Shown: positions 17,380-29,833 of the stretch, piece after piece
Layout: each line of letters opens with the position of its first letter
Numbering within the stretch: the first letter of the stretch is position 1
NCBI GenBank assembly: GCA_947165685.1
Contig: CAMVBK010000003.1
Coordinates: 39,299-103,298, forward strand
DNA from: an uncultured Bacteroidales bacterium
GTDB taxonomy: Bacteria > Bacteroidota > Bacteroidia > Bacteroidales > WCHB1-69
Direction: 5' to 3'
DNA length: 64,000 bases
Program-made: the position numbers and the translations under genes
Notes under the pieces: generated by a model
Database searches by the model: none
Seen by the model: only the letters and a program-made list of their open reading frames with translations
What the model was told of the DNA's origin: nothing

Positions 17380-18924
17380 TTATTCCACCACTTTCCAGTC
17401 CTGAATCTTGCGGGTTTCAGAGGAGAAGTTCACTCCGATCTTGTAGAGCTTGCGCGGGTCGTGGGCGAACGGCGCGGCGTATTGCCTCTCTTCGATCTGC
17501 GCCAGCGCCTCTTCGACGGATTTGTCTAACTTGAACTCGAACAGGTAGATGTAGTCGGCGGTCTGCACCACCATGTCCATGCGGCCGTCGGAAGTGTGCC
17601 GCTCGGTCTCCGTGTAGAAACCCAACATTTGGAAGATGAGGCTCACGGCATTGTGGAAGTAGAGCTCCGCGTCTCCGGCGATTTGGTAGTCTTGGTTGGC
17701 GAACAGGGACTCCAGACGTGCCATGAACTTCAAAGGCTCCCCTGCCTCTATCTCTTGCACGAAGTTCATCACAAACAGACCGGTCTTCTCTTTCCTGAGC
17801 GGCACGTAGTATGGGAACAGGAAGAGGTTGAACCCGCGTTCCACCTCTTGGTTCGGGAATCCGAGCTGGTAGGTTCGGAAACGTGCGTTGTAACTCTTGA
17901 TGGTAAGATAGCCGCTTTGGTAGAGCAGCGGTATTGGATTGGTGTCGATAGCGTCCAAACTCCCGAGCAAATCTGCCGTTACATTTTCGCGGGTGAGCTG
18001 CTCCAGGTCGTAATTATTGCGTTTCAGGACCTCCACCAGGAACGTGGGCGTGCCCGACTGGAACCACTGGTCGCCGAACTCCTTGCGTTTTAAGGCAGAC
18101 AACAGACTGAAAGGATTATACATCCCCGCGCTGTTGGGGTGGAAGTGGTAGCCGTCGTATTGTTCTTTCAGTCTCCCGTAGCACTCCTCCTTGGTCAGGC
18201 CGTTGGCCGCCGCCAGTTCCCCGACTTGTGCATCGATGTTGTCGCGGATTTCCTGCTCGGTGATGCCGCAGATTTCGGCATACTGCTCTGACAACGAGAT
18301 GTCTTCCAGGTTGTTGAGGTCGCTGAACACGCTCACTTTCGAGAACTTGGTCACACCGGTGAAGAAGGCGAGACGGATGCACGCATCCATGGTCTTGACC
18401 ACCCCGTAGAAACCTTTCAGAATCTTGCGGTAGTCGTCCTGAAGTTTCTCGTCGCCGATGGCCTGCAACAGCGGCTTGTCGTACTCATCCACCAGAATCA
18501 CCACCTGCCTGCCGGCTTGTTCGCAGGTGCGGCGGATGACGCCTTTGAATCGTTCGGAAAGAGTGTCTTCCGCCGGTTGTTTTCCGTAGGTTTCTTCAAA
18601 ACGTCGCAGATGCCCGTCAAGGATAGAGACCAGGGCTTCCTCGCTTCTGTAGTCGGCGGCGTTGAGGTCTATATGAAACACGGGATACGGGTTCCACTCG
18701 GTCTCTAATTTGCTGATGGCCAGTCCGTCGAACAATTCCTTTCGGCCTTGGAAGTAGGCCTCTAACGTGGTGATCAGCAGACTCTTGCCGAACCTGCGGG
18801 GACGGCTCAGAAAGAAGTATTTGCCGGAATTGGCCAAGTCATACACCAACTTCGTTTTGTCAATGTACAGAAAACCTTCTTTGATGATATTCGCGAATGT
18901 CTGTATGCCGATGGGGTATTTCAT
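17380..18924 (-). CDS. AAA-ATPase-like / PD-(D/E)XK nuclease family protein (DUF1703-type), copy 1
   Basis: MKYPIGIQTF...YIDKT...RPRRFGKSL (N-terminal ATPase-like domain). The C-terminal GRMDMVVQT..YIYLFEFK is a PD-(D/E)XK-like motif. Paralog at 28209-29753. Confidence 0.8.
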   Translation of the reverse strand: MKYPIGIQTFANIIKEGFLYIDKTKLVYDLANSGKYFFLSRPRRFGKSLLITTLEAYFQGRKELFDGLAISKLETEWNPYPVFHIDLNAADYRSEEALVSILDGHLRRFEETYGKQPAEDTLSERFKGVIRRTCEQAGRQVVILVDEYDKPLLQAIGDEKLQDDYRKILKGFYGVVKTMDACIRLAFFTGVTKFSKVSVFSDLNNLEDISLSEQYAEICGITEQEIRDNIDAQVGELAAANGLTKEECYGRLKEQYDGYHFHPNSAGMYNPFSLLSALKRKEFGDQWFQSGTPTFLVEVLKRNNYDLEQLTRENVTADLLGSLDAIDTNPIPLLYQSGYLTIKSYNARFRTYQLGFPNQEVERGFNLFLFPYYVPLRKEKTGLFVMNFVQEIEAGEPLKFMARLESLFANQDYQIAGDAELYFHNAVSLIFQMLGFYTETERHTSDGRMDMVVQTADYIYLFEFKLDKSVEEALAQIEERQYAAPFAHDPRKLYKIGVNFSSETRKIQDWKVVE

Positions 18925-19008
18925 AGGGATATATTTTCAGGCTGCAAAGATAGGATTTATTTCCGATAGCGGATGCCTTGTCGCTATGCTTTTGTGGTGT
19001 TTGGAATT

Positions 19009-19091
19009 ATGGCGCGAAGATAATGTTTTTTCGGGTTGGGGCGACAATTAAGATATTTTTTTGACGACAACAGAGACAACTTGGACAACAT
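19009..19091 (-). repeat. Inverted extra copy of the about-85-bp orphan-cassette leader element
   Basis: The reverse complement aligns at about 85% by eye with 23134-23216 (gttgtc..gttgtcgtcaaaaaa..atcttaattgt..ccaacccgaaaaaa..ttatcttcgcgccat). No toxin ORF follows it. Confidence 0.75.
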
Positions 19092-19164
19092 GATTGCCCC
19101 ATGGCGGGACGGGAGGATTTTGTCGGGTATGTGTCGGTGTGGATCATGGCGCGAACTATATTCA

Positions 19165-20415
19165 TCATCGTTTCGTAATAACAAATTCCACCCGCCGGTT
19201 CAGCCTGAAGTCATCATTGCCGAAACATTTCCTACATCCCTCTCCTGACAACTTGTTGCAATCGATTAAGGGATAGTAATCATAGCATTGCTTTCCCGTA
19301 ACGTAGGACGTGTCCACACCTTTATTCCCCAAATAGAAAATAATCTCTTCGTACATATACAACAACAAGCTTATAGAATAGGAGTCATCATATTCTTTAA
19401 GTGACAGGTGTATGTCAACCTCTACGGATTTCACATCTTTATGTGAGATCAAGTAAGCCGCAATCGAATCCAAGAGAACGCGATTCTGATAGTCGTTGGT
19501 GTCCAAATGCAGAGTTACAAACTGAAAACAAATATCATGCGTTCTGAGCATCACCTTTTTAGAATCAGAATGAGCCAGCTCGTGAACGGTTTTGACCACG
19601 GGAATGGTATCGTCTCGCAAAGTCGTCTGCGCACTTCTTTTGTTTGTTGATGAAAGACTATCGGCAACCGTCACCATTATGCGACTATTGTATTTCATCG
19701 CCTTGGATTTTTCATCTGCGGGGAGATTGCGTATAAACTCCTCGTCCAAAAGGTCCTTAAAATGAAAATAGTTGTCAAATTCCTCCGGATATACTATTTG
19801 ATAAGGTTCAAAAGGATGCATAAGGACATCTATCTTTGAAGAATCCACACCATGTTGTAACAATATGTTTTTCACGCAATTTATTCTTTGTTCGCACAGT
19901 GTCTGGTCTTCTGAAATACAAAAAGCATTTAGTTGTATGATGAAATTGTTGGCTTTCTGAATTTTCCCCAACCACAAAACCGGGTATGTATAAATAGTGT
20001 TGAAATTTGTGTCGGGAACGATGCTTGCACTGTCGAAAAAGAATGCAGGCAGTTGCGGTTCTGAAAAAATGTAGTTCATTTTAACATGAATAGTTGTATC
20101 AGATAAGTTTTTTGGAATCTTTAAGTCAAAGACTTTGTCATGATAGTGGAATTTGTGAACTCTGATTCTGAATGCGTGGTCTATGGCATTGTCCAACACG
20201 AAGTGTGCGACATGGGGTTCATCAAAAGAAGGGAATACAATAGAGTCGTCGATATAAACACTATAACTGGTAACAATCTCTTCTGTCAAAGAGTCTGTGG
20301 CAAATAACGTTAATTTAACCGATTGTGTTCTTGCTATACCTGGCAATATCAACAAGATGCTTAATCCAATCCATGCAAAGATACTATTGATTTGATTCCT
20401 GCTCATATAACGCAT
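19165..20415 (-). CDS. Exported protein with two degenerate OmpA-like (peptidoglycan-binding) regions
   Basis: Has an N-terminal signal/TM segment and ends in FRLNRRVEFVITKR (OmpA C-terminal signature). A second OmpA-like stretch lies around FFFDSASIV...LCEQRINCVKNILLQHGVD. The gene is AT-rich. Confidence 0.5.
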   Translation of the reverse strand: MRYMSRNQINSIFAWIGLSILLILPGIARTQSVKLTLFATDSLTEEIVTSYSVYIDDSIVFPSFDEPHVAHFVLDNAIDHAFRIRVHKFHYHDKVFDLKIPKNLSDTTIHVKMNYIFSEPQLPAFFFDSASIVPDTNFNTIYTYPVLWLGKIQKANNFIIQLNAFCISEDQTLCEQRINCVKNILLQHGVDSSKIDVLMHPFEPYQIVYPEEFDNYFHFKDLLDEEFIRNLPADEKSKAMKYNSRIMVTVADSLSSTNKRSAQTTLRDDTIPVVKTVHELAHSDSKKVMLRTHDICFQFVTLHLDTNDYQNRVLLDSIAAYLISHKDVKSVEVDIHLSLKEYDDSYSISLLLYMYEEIIFYLGNKGVDTSYVTGKQCYDYYPLIDCNKLSGEGCRKCFGNDDFRLNRRVEFVITKR

Positions 20416-20723
20416 TCCTTTCTGTTTGCTCTTTTTCCTTCATCTCTATCATATCAGATGGCGTTTCAACAAAATCAGAGTTACTTTAATCCCGTATATT
20501 TCTTTCAATTTTAGCTGTTGATAAACCAGCAAATCATTGTTGATAAATAAATTAGCAACAACTTGCTGTTCTCGTGTCTTTCACCTGTTTTTGCGATTGC
20601 TTACTACAACAAACAATTGGCGAGAAATAAACACGGCAGCAAAAATACAAATTAAAAACGACAGAATCAACAGTTTCGTTTTTTTTCATCATCGATCAAT
20701 TTCGTTCATCCAGGCTTGCCGAA

Positions 20724-22511
20724 TTGGCTAACAAGTCATTGGGAATCAAATGGATAAATGCGGGCAGCAACTATTTCAACGATTATTCGCAGGAGGCCGT
20801 TCCCCTTTACAACGGGAACATTTCCGCCCTTTCCGAAAGTATCTATAACTTATGGAACAGAGGGATTCTAAAACTTTTCCGTTACGACAAGTTGAACAGG
20901 ATCAAAAGGATGCGAACGGCCGCACATCATTTCGAGGGGTCTGGATGGGAGACACCCTCCGACAACTTTGCCACGGATTACACCTACGACTGGAACGGAA
21001 ATTTGCTATCTTTGCGGCGCAAAAACCAATACGGCGAGGAGATGCACGATATCCGATATACGTACCCGAATGGCAACAATCGCCTGGGAAGCATAGCTGC
21101 CACCGGTATTTCATCCAGTGTCTATCAGTACGATGCGTTGGGCAACCTGGTGCGCGACAATGCCGAGGGTTTGACCGTGGGCTGGAACGCCTTGGGAAAA
21201 GTGGATACCATCCGCAGGAACGGTAACCTCCTGTCCGCATTCCGCTACAGTCCCACGGGCCAGCGGCAGGTGAAGACCGACTCCTCGGGCACGGCCTTCT
21301 ACATCCACGACGCCACGGGCAACGTGATGTGCATTTACCGGCAGGATGGCGACACCCTGAGAGCCACGGAGCGGTATCTATATGGCAGCAAGCGTTTAGG
21401 CATGTTGGAGCAACAGGTGTGGATTGCCGCGGGCGGCGTGGCACGATTGCAGGATGCCAGCACCATAGGGGCCCGTGTTTACGAGTTTACCGACCATTTG
21501 GGCAATGTGACCTACACGGCACAAGACCGGAAATACCTTGTGCCGGACAGTTATGGCCAACTTCAATATCTCCCTTCCACGGTCACCTACACCGACTACT
21601 ACCCCTTCGGCTACCCCATGCCAGGCCGAAGTTCCTACATGGGGGGTTATCGGTACTTCTTCAATGGGCAGGAGTCTGATAATGAGGTGTTTGGGGAAGT
21701 GATGAGTTTGACCGCTGAATTCTGGCAGTACGATACGAGGTTGGGCCGGAGGTGGAATGTGGACCCCGTGTTCAAGGAGTACGAGAGTCCGTATGCGTGC
21801 TTCGCGGGGAATCCGGTGCGGTTTGCGGATCCGAGAGGAAAGGATGGACGCGTTACTTATACTGAGACTGAAAATGGAGGAGACATTGTTGTTGAAACAA
21901 AATTCTTCGTTTATGGCAAAGGTGCAGAGATTGCTGTAGAAAACGCGAACAAACAGTTTGCTAAGTTAAACACATCCACTTCTGTTGTGATTGATGGAAA
22001 GACATACAATATCAGGCTGAATATCACATGGGAGGTTCGTCAAGATCTTGCAGACATGGACATTGAGAATATGGATTATGCCGATCTTCAATCAATAGAA
22101 GGGTATCAGGAAGGGGACAATTTCCTAAAAGTAGGGGTTCCCGTAGGAGGAGGAAGAACTGGTTTCCTCGGTGAAGGATACAAGGGCGGAAATACAGGTT
22201 ATTCTTTGGTAACATCCGCAGATGCGGTACTCCATGAATCTTTCCACAATCTGGGATTTAAAGATACGTATTATCAAAAAGGATTCGAACGCGACGTAAT
22301 GTCAAGTGGAGCACTTGCGGGACAAGAAATCAATCAAATTCATTACGAGGCTTTGATTCCTATTATTTTGCAAAACTATAATTACATCAAAGAACGTGTC
22401 ATTGCCAATCAGACGTTGGGGACTAACTGGCCTGTCCATAAATTGGGACTGGACATTAACAATCCGAAACAGTTTCATATTTTGCTACGAAGTATCTATC
22501 TGGATTATTAA
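20724..22511 (+). CDS. RHS repeat-associated core protein, 5'-truncated, with an HExxH C-terminal toxin domain
   Basis: YD repeats YTYDWNGNLLSL and YQYDALGNLV, plus DHLGN and YYPFG. The core end is GGYRYFFNGQESDNE..RLGRRWNVDPV..FADPRGKDG, followed by an unrelated tail containing HESFH. An in-frame stop sits at 20628 and the first start is TTG, so the usual long N-terminal shell is absent. Confidence 0.8.
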   Translation: MANKSLGIKWINAGSNYFNDYSQEAVPLYNGNISALSESIYNLWNRGILKLFRYDKLNRIKRMRTAAHHFEGSGWETPSDNFATDYTYDWNGNLLSLRRKNQYGEEMHDIRYTYPNGNNRLGSIAATGISSSVYQYDALGNLVRDNAEGLTVGWNALGKVDTIRRNGNLLSAFRYSPTGQRQVKTDSSGTAFYIHDATGNVMCIYRQDGDTLRATERYLYGSKRLGMLEQQVWIAAGGVARLQDASTIGARVYEFTDHLGNVTYTAQDRKYLVPDSYGQLQYLPSTVTYTDYYPFGYPMPGRSSYMGGYRYFFNGQESDNEVFGEVMSLTAEFWQYDTRLGRRWNVDPVFKEYESPYACFAGNPVRFADPRGKDGRVTYTETENGGDIVVETKFFVYGKGAEIAVENANKQFAKLNTSTSVVIDGKTYNIRLNITWEVRQDLADMDIENMDYADLQSIEGYQEGDNFLKVGVPVGGGRTGFLGEGYKGGNTGYSLVTSADAVLHESFHNLGFKDTYYQKGFERDVMSSGALAGQEINQIHYEALIPIILQNYNYIKERVIANQTLGTNWPVHKLGLDINNPKQFHILLRSIYLDY

Positions 22512-22515
22512 AACC

Positions 22516-23130
22516 ATGAGACTGACTACGTTAATTTTATATTTGCTGTTACCCATATTCTGTATTGGGCAAAGCAGTGCTGAACAAAAGTTCTGTTTCT
22601 GCTTTTTTGACAAATTTGGAGCAGAAGTAACCCCTTCTGAAATGCTGGTGCTGGACAACACAGGGGGTGTTTTTAATTTAGACAGTTCCAAATGTTTTCG
22701 TCATAAGGCCGACACGTCTTATTCTTTTATTTTGCAGGTGATAGACAGAAATTATTACTTTTCCCAAAAACAGTATGATGCCAATGAGATGTCGGGCTGT
22801 GACACGGTTCGATTGGAAAACATGGAGTGTATTAACAAACTCGCCTTCAGCTCTCACCGATTGAAACTGAACAACCGTCAGAAAAAGCAGATCGCCTCCT
22901 TCTTCTCAAACAGTAGGCGCGGGTTCCATCGCATTGCCATTCTTGTAGGGAAACCAACACGTGCGAAAACAGAAGCGAAACAGTGCGTCAACGATATCAT
23001 CAGATTATACGAAAAGGATTTGAAAGCAAGAAACATTCAGCAAACGCCCGAAGTGATGGTGCATTTCTACAATTTGCCTGAGGGGGGAAATACTTTTACG
23101 TTTGAGATTGAAGCGTATGATTACAAATAA
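22516..23130 (+). CDS. Putative immunity protein 1 (exported)
   Basis: Starts 5 nt after the toxin stop. Signal peptide MRLTTLILYLLLPIFCIGQSS. AT-rich with no known motif; assigned by position. Confidence 0.5.
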   Translation: MRLTTLILYLLLPIFCIGQSSAEQKFCFCFFDKFGAEVTPSEMLVLDNTGGVFNLDSSKCFRHKADTSYSFILQVIDRNYYFSQKQYDANEMSGCDTVRLENMECINKLAFSSHRLKLNNRQKKQIASFFSNSRRGFHRIAILVGKPTRAKTEAKQCVNDIIRLYEKDLKARNIQQTPEVMVHFYNLPEGGNTFTFEIEAYDYK

Positions 23131-23201
23131 CTGTTGTTCCGCGTTGTCCCCGTTGTCGTCAAAAAACACATCTTAATTGTTTCACCAACCCGAAAAAAAC
23201 T

Positions 23202-23209
23202 TATCTTCG
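23202..23209 (+). promoter_or_regulatory. -7-like box TAtcTTCG 4 nt upstream of the orphan-1 ATG
   Basis: cttatcttcgcgccATG. The same arrangement occurs at 25152-25159, with a degenerate version at 26585-26594. Confidence 0.4.
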
Positions 23210-23213
23210 CGCC

Positions 23214-24155
23214 ATGAACCACACCTCCACATACCCGCCAAAATTCCCCCGTCCCGCCATGGGGGGTTATCGGTACTTCTTCAACGGGCAGGAGGCTGAT
23301 AATGAGGTGCTTGGAGAAGGGATGAGTTTGGCCGCTGAATTTTGGCAGTACGACACGAGATTGGGCAGGAGGTGGAATGTGGACCCTGTGTTCAAGGAGT
23401 ACGAGAGTCCGTATGCGTGCTTCGCGGGGAATCCGGTATGGTTTGCGGACAGATTTGGAGCGGATACCGCATTCGACGATAACATAGCTAGAAATAATTT
23501 CTTAGAAAGTTATCAGTGGATTATTGGCCAAATATCATCAATCGAGAATAAAACTGCTGCTATTCGAGCGCAAGCTGCCCAGAAAGGATGGAATGACAAT
23601 AAAACAAATAGTAAAATCGACAAATTATTTGGTAAATACGACTACAACACGCTTCTTGAGATGAGGCAAGGATTTGAGGAAATCATGAGAGATCCTAACA
23701 TAATCGTCACATATTCAACAAACGAAGATATGATAGAAGACTTTACCGGGGGGCACACAAAACATGTTGACGACCTACATGTGAATGTATATTTCCGACG
23801 AAACAAGTTAGGGACCCTCATTCATGAATCCCGTCACGCATGGGGAGTGATAAGAAAAGAGTGGTCATTTAGAGGCGGATATGATACCACAGACGAACTA
23901 GTTGCTTTCACTTGGCAAAGTGTTAAAGATCCGACCGCAGTGAATTTATTTAAAGAAACCGTTTCAAAAATATACTATCGGAATGATTTGAGCCAAATGA
24001 TTGAAATGAGCTTGAGCAGTGCCATCAACTATTATTACATTGAAGTCTTGCATAAGAACATGACCAGAAGTGCTATACCTATACCAGAACCCTTCACTCA
24101 AATAAAAAACATTCAAACCGCAGGTTCTTATATCAGAAAACTCCTGAAAAGATAA
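23214..24155 (+). CDS. Orphan RHS C-terminal module 1 (core end plus an HExxH-containing tail)
   Basis: MNHTSTYPPKFPRPAMGGYRYFFNGQEADNE..RLGRRWNVDPVFKEYESPYACFAGNPVWFADRFG, then a unique tail containing LIHESRHAWG. Confidence 0.75.
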   Translation: MNHTSTYPPKFPRPAMGGYRYFFNGQEADNEVLGEGMSLAAEFWQYDTRLGRRWNVDPVFKEYESPYACFAGNPVWFADRFGADTAFDDNIARNNFLESYQWIIGQISSIENKTAAIRAQAAQKGWNDNKTNSKIDKLFGKYDYNTLLEMRQGFEEIMRDPNIIVTYSTNEDMIEDFTGGHTKHVDDLHVNVYFRRNKLGTLIHESRHAWGVIRKEWSFRGGYDTTDELVAFTWQSVKDPTAVNLFKETVSKIYYRNDLSQMIEMSLSSAINYYYIEVLHKNMTRSAIPIPEPFTQIKNIQTAGSYIRKLLKR

Positions 24156-24203
24156 CTTTAGTTTAGAAGAAGTATTCAATGTCCTCAAATAGTCACATAT
24201 AAA

Positions 24204-25151
24204 ATGAAACGTGCTCTTTATAATCTTGTAACATTCCTCTGTTTTCTAAACTTGCCATCGCTGCATGCACAAAACCAACCACCCGTTTGGATAGAAATTG
24301 TTCAGGGTGGCTTCCCCAATTACATAATCTTTTCACGTTATGGGGTGATTGTGTCAACGTTTGATTATAATCTCAATGACCGCTTGCACCTTTTTAATAC
24401 CTCATACTACCCGACAAGGACATTAGGTAACAGTCACATAGATAGTCTGCTTGAATATGTCGTTTTTCAGTATCAAAACTCAGAGCACAAAAAATTTATC
24501 ACTCATGATGTGTTGATATTGGATGGCTCTTATACAGAAATCAGAATCCATAACGGTCATTCAATTAACACATTAAGGACAACCGAAGAGTGCTACAGCA
24601 AAGAGATGGATATTATTGAACGAATGGCAAATCAAATCCTTAGCGAATTATCGGACTCTAACAGAATAGATCTCGGTGGGTATTGCGATCATTGTGAAAT
24701 CGTCAAAGCATCGCCTTATTGTCATTTCAAAACAATGGAGAATCCGACATTCTATGGATTTTTCTTCCAAATGATTGTTGATGACGAAGTTCTTCTTACT
24801 CTTCATGATGACCTTGGCATATTATATCAAGATACCGATGTGATTTTCATACCACGATTCCCGAACCGCGTCAAAAGGCATGAGTTCATGAATTGGAGAA
24901 AGCTGCTTTATCAAACGATAAGAACGGATATCCTCCAAAGTCAATTTGACACAACACCTTCATATACAGGTGGCTATTTGTTGGTTCGACTTGATGACAA
25001 GTGGGCATATATGAATCACGTGGACAGAAAAGTTATTAATAAATGGCTGAACAAAATGGAATGCGTCGTGCCACGCGCTTATCGCAAATCCTTCAAACGC
25101 AAAAAAACAATGATACTCCAATCGTGGAATAAAAATGTATCTAATATTTAG
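24204..25151 (+). CDS. Putative immunity protein 2 (exported)
   Basis: Signal peptide MKRALYNLVTFLCFLNLPSLHAQ. Assigned by its position after the orphan toxin. AT-rich. Confidence 0.5.
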   Translation: MKRALYNLVTFLCFLNLPSLHAQNQPPVWIEIVQGGFPNYIIFSRYGVIVSTFDYNLNDRLHLFNTSYYPTRTLGNSHIDSLLEYVVFQYQNSEHKKFITHDVLILDGSYTEIRIHNGHSINTLRTTEECYSKEMDIIERMANQILSELSDSNRIDLGGYCDHCEIVKASPYCHFKTMENPTFYGFFFQMIVDDEVLLTLHDDLGILYQDTDVIFIPRFPNRVKRHEFMNWRKLLYQTIRTDILQSQFDTTPSYTGGYLLVRLDDKWAYMNHVDRKVINKWLNKMECVVPRAYRKSFKRKKTMILQSWNKNVSNI

Positions 25152-25159
25152 TATCTTCG
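25152..25159 (+). promoter_or_regulatory. -7-like box TAtcTTCG 4 nt upstream of the orphan-2 ATG
   Basis: agtatcttcgcgccATG. Confidence 0.4.
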
Positions 25160-25163
25160 CGCC

Positions 25164-26219
25164 ATGATCCGCACCGCCACATACCCGCCCCAGCCCCCTC
25201 GTTACTATAAGGGGGGGTATCGGTACTTTTTCAACGGGCAAGAGGGAGATAACGAGGTGCTTGGGGAGGGGACTCTGCACGCCTTCGAGTACCGCATGCA
25301 CGACACGCGCACCGGGCGGTTCTGGAGCGTTGATCCCTTGGCGGGGAAGTTCCCGTGGTGGTCCACTTATCAGTTCGCAGGACTTATGCCAACATGGAGC
25401 AGAGAGCTGGAAGGGTTGGAACCGCTTAATAAAGGGAGTTATAATGGTCAAGGTGCTTATGCTCCTGTATTGGACGAAAACAATAATCCCGTTGATGGTA
25501 CAGAAGACCAAACTTGGATATGGAACAACGACACTTGGAATCAATCTGAATATGCCATTGTATATGAAATAATGAACAGTGTTTTCAAAAACGCCAAACC
25601 CTCGTTATTGAGAGGTGCCGAAGTCGCAGTAAATTTGTATGGCTCCACGTTTGGCATAAATAATCGGGAGGCTATTTGTCATTTCTTTGCGCAAGCAGGA
25701 CATGAAAGTGCTGGATTCACTAAAGTCGAAGAGAGTTTCAATTACACTGTCAAAGGTCTGTTGGGAACCTTCGGTAAATATTTCTACGTAGGAGCTCCTG
25801 TGGAAGGCAAATTTAATGCTGAAGAATATGGCCGAACAAACGATCATCCGGCAAACTATGAAGGTATTGCCAATATTGTTTATGACAATCGAATGGGTAA
25901 TGGGAAAAATGAAGGCTATTTGTATCGAGGTCGAGGATTAATACAATTAACAGGAAAGTCAAATTATCAAGCTTTTACGAACTACTTGAATAAAACGTTC
26001 ACGAACAATACAGTTGATTTTGTCCAATCACCTCAACTGGTGGCAACAGATCAATATGCGGTATTAAGTGCCATGTGGTTTTTCAAAAAGAACGTTATTG
26101 ACAAGATTGACATTGATAATGCAAGTGTAAAAGATGTGACGAAAATTGTTAATGGAGGGTATAATGGGTTGAAAGACCGCGAGAGTAAATATGAACAACT
26201 AAAAAACACTCTAAAGTGA
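25164..26219 (+). CDS. Orphan RHS C-terminal module 2 with a GH19/COG3179-like peptidoglycan hydrolase (chitinase/lysozyme) tail
   Basis: The core end is diverged: GGYRYFFNGQEGDNE..TRTGRFWSVDPLAGKFPWWSTYQFAG. The tail has ICHFFAQAGHESAGF, YRGRGLIQLTGKSNYQAF and LSAMWFF, which are GH19-type motifs. Confidence 0.75.
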   Translation: MIRTATYPPQPPRYYKGGYRYFFNGQEGDNEVLGEGTLHAFEYRMHDTRTGRFWSVDPLAGKFPWWSTYQFAGLMPTWSRELEGLEPLNKGSYNGQGAYAPVLDENNNPVDGTEDQTWIWNNDTWNQSEYAIVYEIMNSVFKNAKPSLLRGAEVAVNLYGSTFGINNREAICHFFAQAGHESAGFTKVEESFNYTVKGLLGTFGKYFYVGAPVEGKFNAEEYGRTNDHPANYEGIANIVYDNRMGNGKNEGYLYRGRGLIQLTGKSNYQAFTNYLNKTFTNNTVDFVQSPQLVATDQYAVLSAMWFFKKNVIDKIDIDNASVKDVTKIVNGGYNGLKDRESKYEQLKNTLK

Positions 26220-26581
26220 AACAATACATCTTCATTTTATTTTGGACATTAATTGGGGTATTCGTTTCTTCTGCTCAAGTCAGGATAGATTGCAATACAA
26301 AAGATTTGTATGATAATATTCAAGGCGTGTGGAGGCAAACTGATGGTTCTGGAAATGCTCTGGCAATAGTAGATAGCAATGCGTATTTTTTGTATGGCAC
26401 AGATCAAAGTGTTTGGCAAGATGATGTTGGAAACTTATTCAGCATAGTGAAAAATGACAAAGAAGAATCATTTTTTATATGGTGGTTAGATATGTTAGTT
26501 CAAGAATTTGTTTTGGAAAAAGATACATTGCTGCTGTTGGATTTTAAAGGACGTTCTGAAACGTATATTCGAATTAAGTAA
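26216..26581 (+). CDS. Putative immunity protein 3 (exported)
   Basis: GTG start overlaps the toxin stop (gtga). Signal peptide MKQYIFILFWTLIGVFVSSAQ. Confidence 0.5.
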   Translation: MKQYIFILFWTLIGVFVSSAQVRIDCNTKDLYDNIQGVWRQTDGSGNALAIVDSNAYFLYGTDQSVWQDDVGNLFSIVKNDKEESFFIWWLDMLVQEFVLEKDTLLLLDFKGRSETYIRIK

Positions 26582-26594
26582 AAACTATCGCGCC

Positions 26595-27517
26595 ATGAAT
26601 TTCACGACCACATACCCGCCAAAATCCTCCCGTTCCGCTATGGGGGTATATTGGTATTTCTTCAACGGGCAGGAGGCTGATAATGAGGTGCTTGGAGAGG
26701 GGCGAGTTTGACCGCGGAATTCTGGCAGTACGACACGAGGCTGGGCCGGAGGTGGAATGTGGACCCTGTTTTCAAGGAGTATGAAAGTCCGTATGCGTGC
26801 TTTGCAGGGAACCCGGTGTGGTTTGCGGATCCGAATGGAGACAGTAGTGTTGTTGATGCTAAAGGGTACATGATTTATTATGATGAGAACGACAAGGATT
26901 TGCGAGTTTTCATTAATGAGAACGGTAAGTTAAGACAAATTGGAGAATTAGGAAAGACAATTGAAGCAGACACTTGGTTCGCTAATTTGCTAAAAGAAAA
27001 TGCTGCCGCCGCGAAAGATTCTTGGAATCCTGTTAGCTTCAGGAACAAAGTGAAGCAGTATGGTGAGTGGGATTATAAATATGCTAGTAAAGGCAATAAA
27101 GAAAATGAGAACATCCGTTATCACTTGTTAGGCATTGCCTTTTACAGAAAAGACAAAAACAACAAGGACGCTGATTTGCCAGAGACCTATTTCTCGTTTA
27201 ATGGAATGATAGGAAGAGCCGAAGATTTGAACAACTTTCACTTTGGTGTTGTTGGCAAAGCATTCGGATGGTTCCCTGAGACCTTTATGCTAAAACAGGC
27301 TGGAAAAGCCGAAATGGATAAATGGGCGGAAGAAGGGCGGACTGTTCCTGCTGAATGGACCCCAAGAATAGAAGTTATCAAATTTCGAGGCGGAATGATA
27401 CCAACCTCTTATACCACAACAAAGTTACTGCCTCCTTACGGGGATAACCCTATTGACCATGAGTGGATAAAACGCGGATTTGAATATTATAATAATATGA
27501 CACTATCAAATGACTGA
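26595..27517 (+). pseudogene. Orphan RHS C-terminal module 3, frameshifted
   Basis: MNFTTTYPPKSSRSAMGVYWYFFNGQEADNEVLGEG stops at 26709-26711. The core continues in another frame (AEFWQYDTRLGRRWNVDPV...FADPNGDS). Compared with orphan 1, 1 nt is missing near 26697-26702. Confidence 0.7.
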
Positions 27518-27520
27518 AAG

Positions 27521-28132
27521 ATGAACCGTATCCCACGTATAATCGTCCTATCAATTCTGATTGTCATAGGTGTCGTAGGTGTAGCTTATGTGGCAATTAT
27601 GGCGTATATACACTATGATGTGTTCGGAAAAAGTCCGTCGTATGAAGGGACCAGACAAAATTTCATCAATAATGAGTTATATTTTCAGAAGACAGAAGAT
27701 TGTTTTCAGAAAATTTTCCAATGCTGTTCTTCCGTCGATTCAACAATGGAACTCATTAGATTCACTATTGACAATTCTAGCAACAATTTTGTGTTTTTTC
27801 AATATTTTTCGATAGAAGACAGAAGGCAACTTCTATTCCCGATTAGGGATTCTGGTCTTGAAATAAGCCAAAATCAAAAAGAAACATTGCAGTCCAACGG
27901 CATCACTCCTCAAATGATAGAAACACTTTATTCTAATCTAAAAAAAACAAATTGTCGTTCGGTGGAGAAAGATAAACTAAATTCTAACAACACGATATTT
28001 ATGACTTTTAAAATACTCGATTATTGTTCTATTCAATATATGTTTTATCCTCAACCTTTTGAAGAAGATTCCATTAAGAGTCATATCTCCAACACGCCAC
28101 TCGGTCGGCGAGTAAGGATCTATGTCGAATAA
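27521..28132 (+). CDS. Putative immunity protein 4 (N-terminal membrane anchor)
   Basis: Starts 3 nt after the toxin stop. TM helix IIVLSILIVIGVVGVAYVAIMAY. Confidence 0.45.
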   Translation: MNRIPRIIVLSILIVIGVVGVAYVAIMAYIHYDVFGKSPSYEGTRQNFINNELYFQKTEDCFQKIFQCCSSVDSTMELIRFTIDNSSNNFVFFQYFSIEDRRQLLFPIRDSGLEISQNQKETLQSNGITPQMIETLYSNLKKTNCRSVEKDKLNSNNTIFMTFKILDYCSIQYMFYPQPFEEDSIKSHISNTPLGRRVRIYVE

Positions 28133-28181
28133 TTCCACAAATGTTGTCCAAGTTGTCCAAGTTGTCTTTCTAAATAAATTG

Positions 28182-28189
28182 TATCTTTG
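28182..28189 (+). promoter_or_regulatory. -7 promoter box TAtcTTTG for ATPase copy 2
   Basis: Lies 19 nt upstream of ATG 28209. Confidence 0.45.
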
Positions 28190-28208
28190 CGGCAAAAATT
28201 TTGTCATT

Positions 28209-29753
28209 ATGAAATACCCCATCGGTATACAGACATTCGCCGAAATTATCGACAAAGGATACGTCTATATAGATAAAACGGCATTGGTGTATAAACTGGC
28301 CAACAGCGGATGCTACTATTCCCTGCATCGTCCCCGCAGGTTCGGCAAGAGTCTGCTGATCACCACGTTGGAGGCCTACTTCCAAGGCCGAAAGGAATTG
28401 TTCGACGGACTGGCCATCAGCAAGTTAGAGACCGAGTGGAACCCGTATCCCGTGTTTCATATAGACCTCAACGCCGCCGACTACAGAAGCGAGGAAGCCC
28501 TGGTCTCTATCCTTGACGGGCATCTGCGACGTTTTGAAGAAACCTACGGAAAACAACCGGCGGAAGACACTCTTTCCGAACGATTCAAAGGCGTCATCCG
28601 CCGCACCTGCGAACAAGCCGGCAGGCAGGTGGTGATTCTGGTGGATGAGTACGACAAGCCGCTGTTGCAGGCCATCGGCGACGAGAAACTTCAGGACGAC
28701 TACCGCAAGATTCTGAAAGGTTTCTACGGGGTGGTCAAGACCATGGATGCGTGTATCCGTCTCGCCTTCTTCACCGGTGTGACCAAGTTCTCGAAAGTGA
28801 GCGTGTTTAGTGATCTTAACAACCTGAAAGACATTTCGTTGGACAACAGGTATGCTGAGATTTGCGGTATCACGGAGAAAGAAATCCATGACAACATTGA
28901 CGCGGAGGTGGAAAGCATGGCCTCGGCTAACGGGATGAGCAAGGACGAGTGCTATGAGAAACTGAAAAAACAGTACGACGGCTACCATTTCAGCAAGAAC
29001 GGCACAGGAATGTACAATCCTTTCAGCCTGCTTAACGCGCTTGACAGCCAAGAGTTCGGCGACCAGTGGTTCCAGTCAGGTACGCCCACATTCTTAGTGG
29101 AGGTGATGAAGCGCAACCACTATGACCTGGAACAGCTCGCCCGCGAGGAGGCCACGGCCGACCTGTTGGGCAGTCTGGATGCCATCGACACCAACCCGAT
29201 CCCGCTGCTTTATCAGAGCGGCTATCTCACCATAAAAGGCTATGACCCTGAGTTTTGCACCTATCGACTGGGGTTCCCAAACCAAGAGGTGGAACGAGGC
29301 TTTTCCCGTTTTCTATTCCGATACTACACCCCTGCTTCCCAAGGACAGGGCAGCTTTGTAAAGGATTTCGTCTTGGCGGCGCGAGCCGGCCAGACCGACG
29401 AGTTCATGAAACGGCTGGAGACATTATTCGCCGGACAAGACTACCAGATAGCGGGTGACGCGGAGCTCTACTTCCACAACGCCGTCGCGCTCATCTTCAA
29501 GATGGTGGGCTTCTACACGGAGACCGAGCGGCACACTTCCGACGGCCGCATGGACATGGTGGTGCAGACCGCCGACTACATCTACCTGTTCGAGTTCAAG
29601 TTAGACAAATCCGTCGAAGAGGCGCTGGCGCAGATCGAAGAGAGGCAATACGCCGCGCCGTTCGCCCACGACCCGCGCAAGCTCTACAAGATCGGAGTGA
29701 ACTTCTCCTCTGAAACCCGCAAGATTCAGGACTGGAAAGTGGTGGAGCGGTAA
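28209..29753 (+). CDS. AAA-ATPase-like / PD-(D/E)XK nuclease family protein (DUF1703-type), copy 2
   Basis: Colinear with copy 1 and starts with the same MKYPIGIQTF. The 28122 start of the ORF track was rejected because it runs through the promoter box. Confidence 0.8.
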   Translation: MKYPIGIQTFAEIIDKGYVYIDKTALVYKLANSGCYYSLHRPRRFGKSLLITTLEAYFQGRKELFDGLAISKLETEWNPYPVFHIDLNAADYRSEEALVSILDGHLRRFEETYGKQPAEDTLSERFKGVIRRTCEQAGRQVVILVDEYDKPLLQAIGDEKLQDDYRKILKGFYGVVKTMDACIRLAFFTGVTKFSKVSVFSDLNNLKDISLDNRYAEICGITEKEIHDNIDAEVESMASANGMSKDECYEKLKKQYDGYHFSKNGTGMYNPFSLLNALDSQEFGDQWFQSGTPTFLVEVMKRNHYDLEQLAREEATADLLGSLDAIDTNPIPLLYQSGYLTIKGYDPEFCTYRLGFPNQEVERGFSRFLFRYYTPASQGQGSFVKDFVLAARAGQTDEFMKRLETLFAGQDYQIAGDAELYFHNAVALIFKMVGFYTETERHTSDGRMDMVVQTADYIYLFEFKLDKSVEEALAQIEERQYAAPFAHDPRKLYKIGVNFSSETRKIQDWKVVER

Positions 29754-29833
29754 AAGTTTGTCATCGCGCCAAGACTCCCACAATCACTGAGCGTGGACAA
29801 CTTCTGTTTTCAGACCTGCAAGGCCAGAATCCC

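Follow-up and report, generated by a model that had tools for sequence, protein, structure and literature searches.

An invariant ATG at the conserved 5′ edge of orphan RHS toxin cassettes in rumen-type Bacteroidales arrays

The DNA analyzed here is a 64,000-nucleotide (nt) stretch of an uncultured Bacteroidales bacterium (contig CAMVBK010000003.1, positions 39,299 to 103,298; referred to as the window). At 20.7 to 28.1 kb it contains a co-directional array made up of an RHS fragment, a signal-peptide open reading frame (ORF), and then three pairs, each consisting of an orphan RHS toxin module and a small ORF. The three orphans begin with the same short motif, TCGCGCC-ATG-A....CAC..CCACATACCCGCC, at 23214, 25164, and 26595, which we call the head. 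That the head ATG serves as the orphan cassettes' own start codon is well supported by comparison of head copies, while the box in front of it is a plausible but unproven promoter. We consider the chances about even that the head is the conserved 5′ end of autonomous cassettes, each consisting of an RHS C-terminal toxin (RHS-CT) and its immunity gene, that fill arrays in rumen-type Bacteroidales.

An earlier, sequence-only reading of this DNA had quoted the three head strings, and each lies at the position given for it. In an alignment, TCGCGCC-ATG-A is common to all three orphans, and CACNNCCACATACCCGCC occurs exactly three times in the window, relative to an expectation of 0.03. The RHS fragment at the front of the array had been described as a lead gene without the conserved string. 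It does carry TYTDYYPFGYPMPGRSSYMGGYRYFF at that place, but this sequence is a diverged homologue in the same register (20 to 22 of 39 nt identical), and the "lead" leads nothing, being a 5′-truncated fragment itself. The statement that all three orphans carry the box and the ATG holds for orphans 1 and 2, whereas orphan 3 has the ATG but a box that lacks its TT (ctatcgcgcc). Since a 1-nt deletion near 26698 brings a TGA (26709-26711) into the frame of orphan 3, which ends after 38 codons, we regard this gene as a pseudogene. Two further copies of the junction lie on the minus strand at 19008-19163, one of them truncated and the other with ATA in place of ATG.

The junction also recurs in other Bacteroidales arrays, where a survey had been proposed. 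Outside the window, we found ~200 head copies in 114 loci, namely, 6 Bacteroidales genomes and 108 rumen-type metagenome contigs; sheep-rumen and RUG-series metagenome-assembled genomes are among the genome loci. A first genome scan with the looser pattern CACNNCCACATACCCGCC returned 120 loci, 6 of them true and 114 of them chance matches in unrelated phyla, whereas the metagenome contigs were scanned with a specific pattern that returned the 108 contigs. About two-thirds of the head copies continue into M.xTxTYPP...GGYRYFFNGQE and an ORF, which is at least 250 aa long in 89 of the 111 head ORFs not cut by a contig end (~80% intact). The 92 intact head ORFs (78 unique) fall into at least 32 unrelated C-terminal toxin clusters; therefore, one head serves many toxins, which bears out the claim that the start and box string is conserved across modules with different toxins. 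The pattern TATCTTCGCGCCATGA-N11-ACATA is sharp enough to serve as a search key for such arrays. Phage carriage of the head was rejected, as no head match was found in the viral contigs searched. An RNA element or structured leader was also rejected, as Rfam gave nothing significant and the head regions folded no better than shuffled sequences (z of −0.5 to +0.4).

At 23214, 25164, and 26595, the head ATG is the first start codon after an in-frame stop, the nearest stop at 26595 lying 32 codons upstream. Over all copies in which an RHS core follows the head, the codon is ATG in 142 of 142. We also used an ascertainment-corrected sample, in which one exact match per contig was dropped and 53 unique siblings remained. 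The ATG is present in all 53, whereas the 4-nt linker is intact in 40 and the box in 35. ATA was found in three or four true head copies, none of which has an ORF (window 19010 and loci L148, L152, and L223). An ATG that is invariant where an ORF follows and replaced by ATA in some copies where none does is the pattern expected for a selected start codon, with the caveat that kinship among the head copies inflates its apparent significance. These comparisons give good support to the view that the orphans carry a start codon of their own.

The sequence of the head suggests how it arose. Its coding part, TATCTTCGCGCCATGAACCACACCTCCACATACCCGCCA (YLRAMNHTSTYPP), aligns ungapped and in frame with TATCTCCCTTCCACGGTCACCTACACCGACTACTACCCC (YLPSTVTYTDYYP) of the lead, at the syntenic place. 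The match of the head 39-mer to the lead is the best of ~1,750 offsets, whereas the 30 nt upstream match at chance level (8/30), and the head codons YLRAM-NHTSTYPP are in frame with YLPST-VTYTDYYP of full-length genes. The −12..+1 segment, TATCTTCGCGCCA, agrees at 11 of 13 positions with the AAA-ATPase promoter TATCTTTGCGGCA and at 8 of 13 with RHS sequence; TATCTTCGCGCC followed by A in the head is a near copy of TATCTTTGCGGC followed by A, the canonical promoter of the neighboring AAA-ATPase genes. A long-form upstream part (TTGTCTTTCTAA...) is also common to head 1 and the AAA-ATPase gene promoters. From this we read the head as a chimera, made once, of a promoter region and a decayed, truncated RHS core that starts at about +2. 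Homology among head copies ends sharply at about −16, and since all copies share this one 5′ boundary, they descend from a single truncation and fusion event. The core end is 92% identical in DNA between the lead and orphan 1 over 199 nt, and codons ~17 to 90 are 80 to 90% identical among cassettes and to full-length RHS genes. Spread of the head onto at least 32 toxin families would likely have occurred by homologous recombination within this conserved core end.

The in-frame, in-register homology of the head 39-mer to the lead codons YLPSTVTYTDYYP could also mean that the junction is simply internal sequence of another full-length RHS allele, with the ATG as an internal Met codon. We consider this highly improbable. 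None of the 18 lead-type genes in the loci (60 to 1,976 open codons upstream) has the head, and all read ...TYTDYYPFG.PM.. at that place. When 1.84 billion representatives were searched exhaustively with HMMER, 13,041 matched; among the best 150, which were inspected, the M.xTxTYPP end aligns only to residues 1 to 5 of proteins of ~280 to 320 aa. The proteins of more than 2,000 aa either carry DYYPFG or DYYAFG at the head position (P0086 and P0192) or align only from query residue 20 or 21, past the M.xTxTYPP segment (P0115, P0167, and P0217). A search with the 84-aa head region gave only proteins shorter than 150 aa, too short to bear on the idea. In most of the ~200 copies, in-frame stops lie 4 to 50 codons upstream of the head ATG, and the end of homology at about −16 likewise speaks against an internal sequence. 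The five long open stretches that were traced (L063, L161, L186 2898, L197, and L198 5832) enter an upstream AAA/PDDEXK_9 gene and not RHS sequence; a further copy outside these five (L186 5761/L198 8695) has 139 open codons. Thus, the full-length allele that the sequence-only reading had named as its own refutation was found neither among the 18 lead genes nor among the best 150 matches.

In Bacteroidota, the sigma-A box TAnnTTTG has been reported at −12..−5 (PMC9723704). The head box, TATCTTCG, agrees with seven of its eight positions and stands at −12..−5 from the A of the ATG; therefore, transcription would begin at the ATG and yield a leaderless transcript. Leaderless or near-leaderless mRNAs account for 3.7% in Bacteroides thetaiotaomicron and 5.5% in Flavobacterium psychrophilum. 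A perfect TTTG is present in 5 of the 53 siblings. Seven of the ten head positions from −10 to −1 are G or C, relative to a mean of 3.0 in 28 window genes, and because such a GC-rich context is a poor leadered start, it fits a leaderless design. Given these features, it is plausible, but unproven, that the box is the head's own leaderless sigma-ABfr-type promoter, and the orphan cassettes are probably genes that are expressed on their own and not silent spares. Elsewhere in the window, TAnnTTTG lies 27 to 30 nt before the ATG in 8 of 28 long genes, which implies a very uniform 5′ untranslated region of ~16 to 18 nt in this organism. Examples are the genes at 295, 1954, 14192(−), 16419(−), 18924(−), 42390, and 57324, where the box is often followed by CCGCCCGAAAA.

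Several observations weigh against a promoter in the head. Identity over −16..−1 is 0.85, with no excess over the flanking coding positions (0.85/0.78/0.82 by codon position in codons 1 to 18 and 0.88/0.88/0.78 in codons 19 to 40), so that the box could be accounted for by common descent together with gene conversion; codons 1 to 18 show no protein-level constraint pattern either. In most boxes a consensus T is replaced by C, and the TA is lost from 11 of the 53 siblings, which nonetheless keep the ATG. There is no conserved −33 element, as TTG occurs at −40..−36 in about one-third of 154 unique heads and a control interval is no lower; this element has been reported to be weak or variable in Bacteroidota. 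The upstream gene is co-directional for 89 of 90 heads, and the preceding stop lies a median of 54 nt away, in 29% no more than 20 nt. Read-through transcription is therefore always possible, and the arrays look like operons. For the same reason, the orientation of the upstream gene was uninformative as a test of read-through, although the lone exception led to the double heads described below. The nature of the product is a further difficulty. Downstream of each window orphan, at 0 to 48 nt, lies an ORF that encodes a signal peptide or membrane anchor; such ORFs accompany orphans elsewhere, and one of these export signals is present in each of the four presumed immunity ORFs of the window. 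Since one of the toxins is also lysozyme-like, the toxins probably act in the envelope, and a shell-less mini-RHS made in the cytoplasm would probably have no evident role or delivery route. On balance, the −7-type box next to the ATG is one mismatch from the consensus, as had been noted, and lies at the published position, but it shows no excess conservation and has no conserved −33 partner. The proposed selection for independent expression fits the ATG, invariant where an ORF follows, but draws no support from the box, which is no better kept than its flanks.

Heads are not confined to toxin orphans. For example, a head sits directly on a signal-peptide or lipoprotein-like ORF whose ATG is the head ATG in L171 (3505 and 10582) and L220, and in L165, L196, and L217 a head stub is fused to the same lipoprotein family; from their sequences, these look like toxin deletions that left an immunity-like gene under the head. 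Five copies are back-to-back heads (L150 78-119, L165 144-185, L171 3466-3507 and 10543-10584, and L201 1575-1616) and form a 36-nt palindrome, CAT-GGCGCGAAGATAGCAAAT joined to ATTTGCTATCTTCGCGCC-ATG, which is perfect in three and has a few base differences in two. They lie between divergent genes of different kinds (RHS orphan, signal-peptide proteins). Since they have no co-directional neighbor, any promoter would have to lie within the 36 nt or inside the opposite gene, and the double head may act as a leaderless promoter in both directions, as an operator, or as a site of recombination. An unrelated "type 2" orphan head was found at L098 2521, L137, L142 439, L156 9827, L184, L192 8290, L199, L078 1320, and L170. 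It consists of ...TGTCAACAAAGTGGTAACATGGTGATT..AAAAAAGTGTATCTTTGCC, a leader of ~45 nt, ATGACTAATTGTCAACAATATAAC, and the RHS core end, with AAAAAAGTGTATCTTTGCC, a perfect −7 box (perfect TATCTTTG), ~52 nt upstream of its own ATG. Eight of the ten type 2 ORFs are 291 to 317 aa long, the remaining two being broken or incomplete, and the window contains no type 2 head. Given this perfect box, autonomous expression signals on orphans are not unique to the main head.

Head stubs were also seen joined to other genes. Stubs ending in ...TYPPQ adjoin a gene with its own perfect TACTTTTG box (L127 2853, L151 2106, L189 4919, and L215 3577), whose product starts with MSRTGIVDRIKAVA..., contains GSEARGD...DIDLLV, and is nucleotidyltransferase-like (MNT-like); thus, non-toxin cassettes also occur between heads. 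Stubs ending in ...CCACATA are joined to TAGACAAAAAAGTGTATCTTTGCC, the promoter of a three-gene unit (74, 161, and 74 aa), at L101 3533-4540, L132, L130, and L204 5331, and the same join is present in several contigs. Another array-end join, ACATATAGACCTGATTTCC, has its first 5 nt in common with the TAGACAAAAAAGTGTATCTTTGCC join.

The points raised against a promoter are those that would be expected if the head contained none and were instead the 5′ boundary of a single ancestral orphan, frozen by descent and gene conversion as a left homology arm for cassette exchange. The arrays would then be transcribed as operons from upstream, and the ATG, if used at all, would be reached by re-initiation after the preceding immunity gene. 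We regard this as a serious possibility, though on the whole a somewhat unlikely one. It would account for a box that is conserved like its flanks, for the equal conservation of codon positions in codons 1 to 18, for the missing −33 element, and for the co-directional, closely spaced upstream genes; the 92% identity of the lead and orphan 1 core ends over 199 nt would be sufficient for homologous recombination, and stub breakpoints are scattered (+21, +30, +45, and +57), as illegitimate deletions would leave them. It accounts less well for an ATG that is markedly better kept than the linker and box and decays only in ORF-less copies, or for heads on non-RHS genes in which homology ends exactly at the ATG. 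Palindromic double heads, with 36 nt between two ATGs, have no co-directional upstream gene from which transcription could enter, and the head lies in a GC-rich context ill suited to internal initiation in Bacteroidota, a phylum with an excess of A at −3, −6, and −11. Moreover, since a canonical box was found in the upstream gap of only 2 of 89 co-directional heads, the promoter of a frozen edge would have to lie far upstream.

The same stubs and boundaries can be read as the marks of a site-specific recombination or cassette-capture site, akin to integron attC/attI sites or to the repeats of the recombinase-associated rAID-1 clusters, with a secondary likeness to a promoter and with a dedicated enzyme that might be the adjacent AAA-ATPase/PD-(D/E)XK nuclease. 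This, too, we consider unlikely, and more so. In its favor are the sharp 5′ boundary and tight packing, with the preceding stop abutting the head; ORF-less stubs within arrays and beside flanking genes, including one at L101 5864 just upstream of an unrelated 390-aa ORF and the minus-strand head copies of the window just before an AAA-ATPase gene; the perfect 36-nt palindromic double head; and a cassette GC content of 0.37 to 0.38 relative to 0.52 for the window, as in rAID-1. AAA-ATPase_like/PDDEXK_9 genes are also strongly enriched beside heads (30 of 114 loci), and their stop often lies 5 nt before a head. However, these genes are absent from 74% of the loci, have their own promoter, and resemble one more cassette; no recombinase activity is known for the AAA/PDDEXK_9 family, and we found no functional study of it in the literature. 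Neither a tyrosine nor a serine recombinase was detected by Pfam among 20 ORFs of the window at ~7 to 34 kb, the part of the loci that was scanned, which takes in the array and its flanks. The scatter of stub breakpoints defines no single crossover point, and ~250 nt of core end at 80 to 92% identity suffices for homologous recombination. Equally doubtful, in our estimate, is a broader version, in which the head is the boundary element of an undescribed rumen Bacteroidales cassette system and both joins cassettes and supplies a leaderless promoter and start. Such a head, ~40 nt long, portable, and in some copies palindromic and bidirectional, would belong to an integron-like array that has no integrase; the cassettes it joins would be toxin/immunity pairs, genes for immunity alone, and AAA-ATPase/PD-(D/E)XK genes, the last of which might service the array. 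An integron proper was rejected, given that Pfam found no integrase in the same 20 ORFs, that the head folds no better than shuffled sequences, and that Rfam was negative. The array does have the rAID-1 trait of at least two co-directional downstream low-GC (≤41%) genes with repetitive intergenic sequence, the heads recurring between cassettes. Since rAID-1 is defined by an XerD-like tyrosine recombinase in 5′ position, with 44% or more identity to BF9343_RS08045, and no Phage_integrase match was found among the 20 ORFs around the array, this assignment was rejected as well.

If the head is indeed the 5′ end of autonomous cassettes, it would turn each cassette into a self-contained gene, with the head ATG as its putative start. 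The −7-like box at −12..−5 would probably act as a weak promoter of the sigma-ABfr type, with transcription beginning at the A of the ATG and a leaderless mRNA as the result. Expression of the downstream immunity gene would be the most likely selected benefit, and the toxin ORF may stay readable as a reservoir for swapping into full-length RHS genes.

The features of the window locus are listed in Table 1. The lead is 78% identical to residues 1678 to 2030 of P0086, a 2,249-aa RHS protein with a signal peptide, so that ~1,665 N-terminal residues are missing; its frame is closed upstream at ~20628. The RHS core profile TIGR03696 (Rhs_assc_core) has a curated cutoff of 32.5 bits, and all three of its matches here fall under this cutoff: lead residues 292 to 372 (profile positions 1 to 75, E = 1.6e-5), orphan 1 residues 20 to 82 (positions 16 to 75, E = 4e-4), and orphan 2 (positions 16 to 69, E = 2e-5). 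The orphans thus retain positions 16 to 75, including the DPxG region, and orphans 1 and 2 keep part of the core end, as RHS orphan modules do. The toxin cluster of orphan 1 is common to three other contigs, and the toxin region of orphan 2 has a Pfam Glyco_hydro_19 match that is also below cutoff (E = 1e-4). No intact delivery gene was found in the window, where the longest ORF is ≤1,081 aa; a full-length rhs gene upstream of the array is present at other loci, e.g., L149, L194, L200, and L222 (1,100 to 1,976 open codons upstream). Immunity gene 0 has no Pfam or NCBIfam match. Nearly identical copies of immunity genes on metagenome contigs of rumen type suggest that the DNA comes from a rumen Bacteroidales. 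The toxin-specific and immunity parts (23480-26219) have a GC content of 0.37 to 0.38 and the head and core end one of 0.56, relative to 0.52 for the window. Such low-GC variable parts are typical of the classical RHS core/tip contrast and are consistent with a horizontal origin of the cassettes.

Table 1. Features of the orphan array and its surroundings, in window coordinates
Feature	Position	Strand	Description
"Lead" RHS fragment	20757..22511	+	ORF 20724-22511; 5′-truncated; last ~350 residues of shell/core, then HExxH-containing C-terminal toxin region
Presumed immunity gene 0	22516..23130	+	Signal peptide MRLTTLILYLLLPIFCIGQSS; homologues in arrays L147 and L171; role inferred from position
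Head 1, long-form upstream part	23131..23197	+	Three GTTGT(C/T) repeats, A-run, ATCTTAATTGT, CCAACCCGAAAAAAA
Head 1	23198..23239	+	Box TATCTTCG 23202-23209, linker CGCC, ATG 23214-23216, then AACCACACCTCCACATACCCGCC
Orphan 1	23214..24155	+	313 aa; ~85 aa of RHS core end, then HExxH-containing toxin region
Presumed immunity gene 1	24204..25151	+	Signal peptide; 51 to 99% identical homologues after orphans in ~15 other loci
Head 2	25148..25189	+	Box TATCTTCG 25152-25159, ATG 25164; immunity gene 1 stop TAG abuts box
Orphan 2	25164..26219	+	351 aa; core end and GH19/lysozyme-like toxin region
Presumed immunity gene 2	26216..26581	+	Signal peptide; overlaps orphan 2 stop; homologues in L137, L147, and L228
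Head 3	26583..26620	+	Degenerate box CTATCGCGCC, 2 nt missing; ATG 26595
Orphan 3	26595..27517	+	Pseudogene; toxin region Ntox44 (Pfam E = 1.7e-9)
Presumed immunity gene 3	27521..28132	+	N-terminal membrane anchor; 98 to 99.5% identical copies in L140, L204, and L225
AAA-ATPase_like/PDDEXK_9 gene closing array	28143..29753	+	GTTGTCC repeats 28143-28166, box TATCTTTG 28182-28189, ATG 28209
Degenerate head remnant	29759..29772	+	TGTCATCGCGCCAA, 5 nt past AAA-ATPase stop
Second AAA-ATPase_like/PDDEXK_9 gene	17380..18952	−	Box TATCTTTG 18952-18945, ATG 18924; Pfam E = 7e-72 and 1e-21
Head stub	19091..19163	−	TATAGTTCGCGCC-ATG (ATG 19147-19145) and ~50 nt of orphan 5′ end, ending after ...CCATGGGG
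Spacer and decayed head	19008..19090	−	GTTGTC repeats; box 19022-19015, ATA 19010-19008 for ATG; no ORF
416-aa signal-peptide protein	19165..20415	−	OmpA-like C-terminal tail; directly adjoins head stub

Two mutually inverted AAA-ATPase_like/PDDEXK_9 genes (17380-18924 on the minus strand and 28209-29753 on the plus strand) bracket the whole locus; GTTGTCC tandem repeats stand just upstream of the TATCTTTG promoter of each such gene. The Pfam matches of the plus-strand gene have E values of 4e-70 and 2e-21, and where a degenerate head remnant follows it, an intact head stands at the same place after the AAA-ATPase gene in L063, L151, and L167. The upstream element of head 1 recurs at 19023-19096 on the minus strand and in other loci and is related to the region upstream of the AAA-ATPase gene promoters. 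On the minus strand, the sequence before the ATG of the head stub is TTCGCGCC, and a spacer of ~85 nt equals the one before orphan 1 (GTTGTC repeats, ATCTTAATTGT, and CCAACCCGAAAAAA). The neighboring gene for the 416-aa protein has no Pfam match, but its homologues adjoin heads or orphans in eight other loci, and it probably stood last in a decayed array on the minus strand. This decayed array (19008-20415) faces the 5′-truncated RHS fragment across an AT-rich gap of 300 nt (20416-20756). The layout suggests that an old inversion or deletion took out the RHS shell.

The closest functional precedent is the internal expression of Rhs-CT in Salmonella Typhimurium, where a conserved internal promoter, with a CTG start, drives both main and orphan toxins, which behave in a toxin-antitoxin-like manner (Starsta et al. 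2020, PMC7043789). In several genera, that promoter was found in front of 50 or more toxins (PMC7043789), so the premise that orphans are classically silent until recombined was already outdated. In both cases, an expression signal at the conserved core end is carried by many Rhs toxins and would yield a shell-less toxin and its immunity protein from a start of its own, without dependence on the delivery part (PMC7043789). The Salmonella signal, however, is of the sigma-70 type, lies 89 nt upstream of PxxxxDPxGL within a continuous rhs frame, and includes a 5′ untranslated region and the CTG, whereas in the head a −7-like box of the Bacteroidota kind stands 4 nt from an ATG, and the DPxG site follows ~80 codons later. 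Unlike the Salmonella promoter, the head is restricted to the 5′ edges of orphans, recurs on genes for immunity alone, exists in a palindromic bidirectional form, and goes with immunity proteins that carry export signals. The cytoplasmic, toxin-antitoxin-like activity of the Salmonella toxin was shown experimentally, whereas the heads are known from sequence only.

The modules of classical cdiA-CT orphans "generally lack translation initiation signals," a model that has been extended to rhs orphans (Poole et al. 2011, PMC3150448), and the head ATG departs from this trait. The arrays share with classical rhs-CT/rhsI and cdiA-CT/cdiI orphans their layout of toxin/immunity pairs downstream of a main gene, a recombinable piece of core, and low-GC variable parts. 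Classical orphans retain variable lengths of core, whereas every orphan here has the same 5′ edge and an invariant ATG, and the present arrays, unlike classical ones, can exist without a nearby intact main gene (the window and L101). Solo toxin cassettes in toxin-immunity order beside full-length polymorphic toxin genes were described previously (Zhang et al. 2012, PMC3482391); that study treats them as recombination substrates and describes no conserved head with a start codon or promoter. The rAID-1 clusters, recombinase-associated orphan immunity clusters of the Bacteroidales (Ross et al. 2019, bioRxiv 10.1101/471110), resemble these arrays in being co-directional, low-GC interbacterial defense arrays with intergenic repeats in the same bacterial order, in which the selective value lies in orphan immunity. 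They differ in that no defining recombinase was found here, the toxin ORFs are intact, and the repeat is an RHS-derived head with a start codon.

If the box is a promoter, primary 5′ ends are predicted exactly at the head ATG, and changing TATCTTCG to TATCTTTG would be expected to raise expression, whereas changing it to GCTCTTCG would be expected to lower it. Bacteroidales would then also have in the head a compact natural module of leaderless promoter and start, one form of which, 36 nt long, would be bidirectional. The usual view of orphan toxin modules is that of silent spares, relevant only once they have recombined into a delivery gene. Should the head drive expression, the arrays of rumen and gut Bacteroidales would instead be actively expressed repertoires of immunity genes and perhaps toxins, and their ecological role and their signals in metatranscriptomes would need to be reread.

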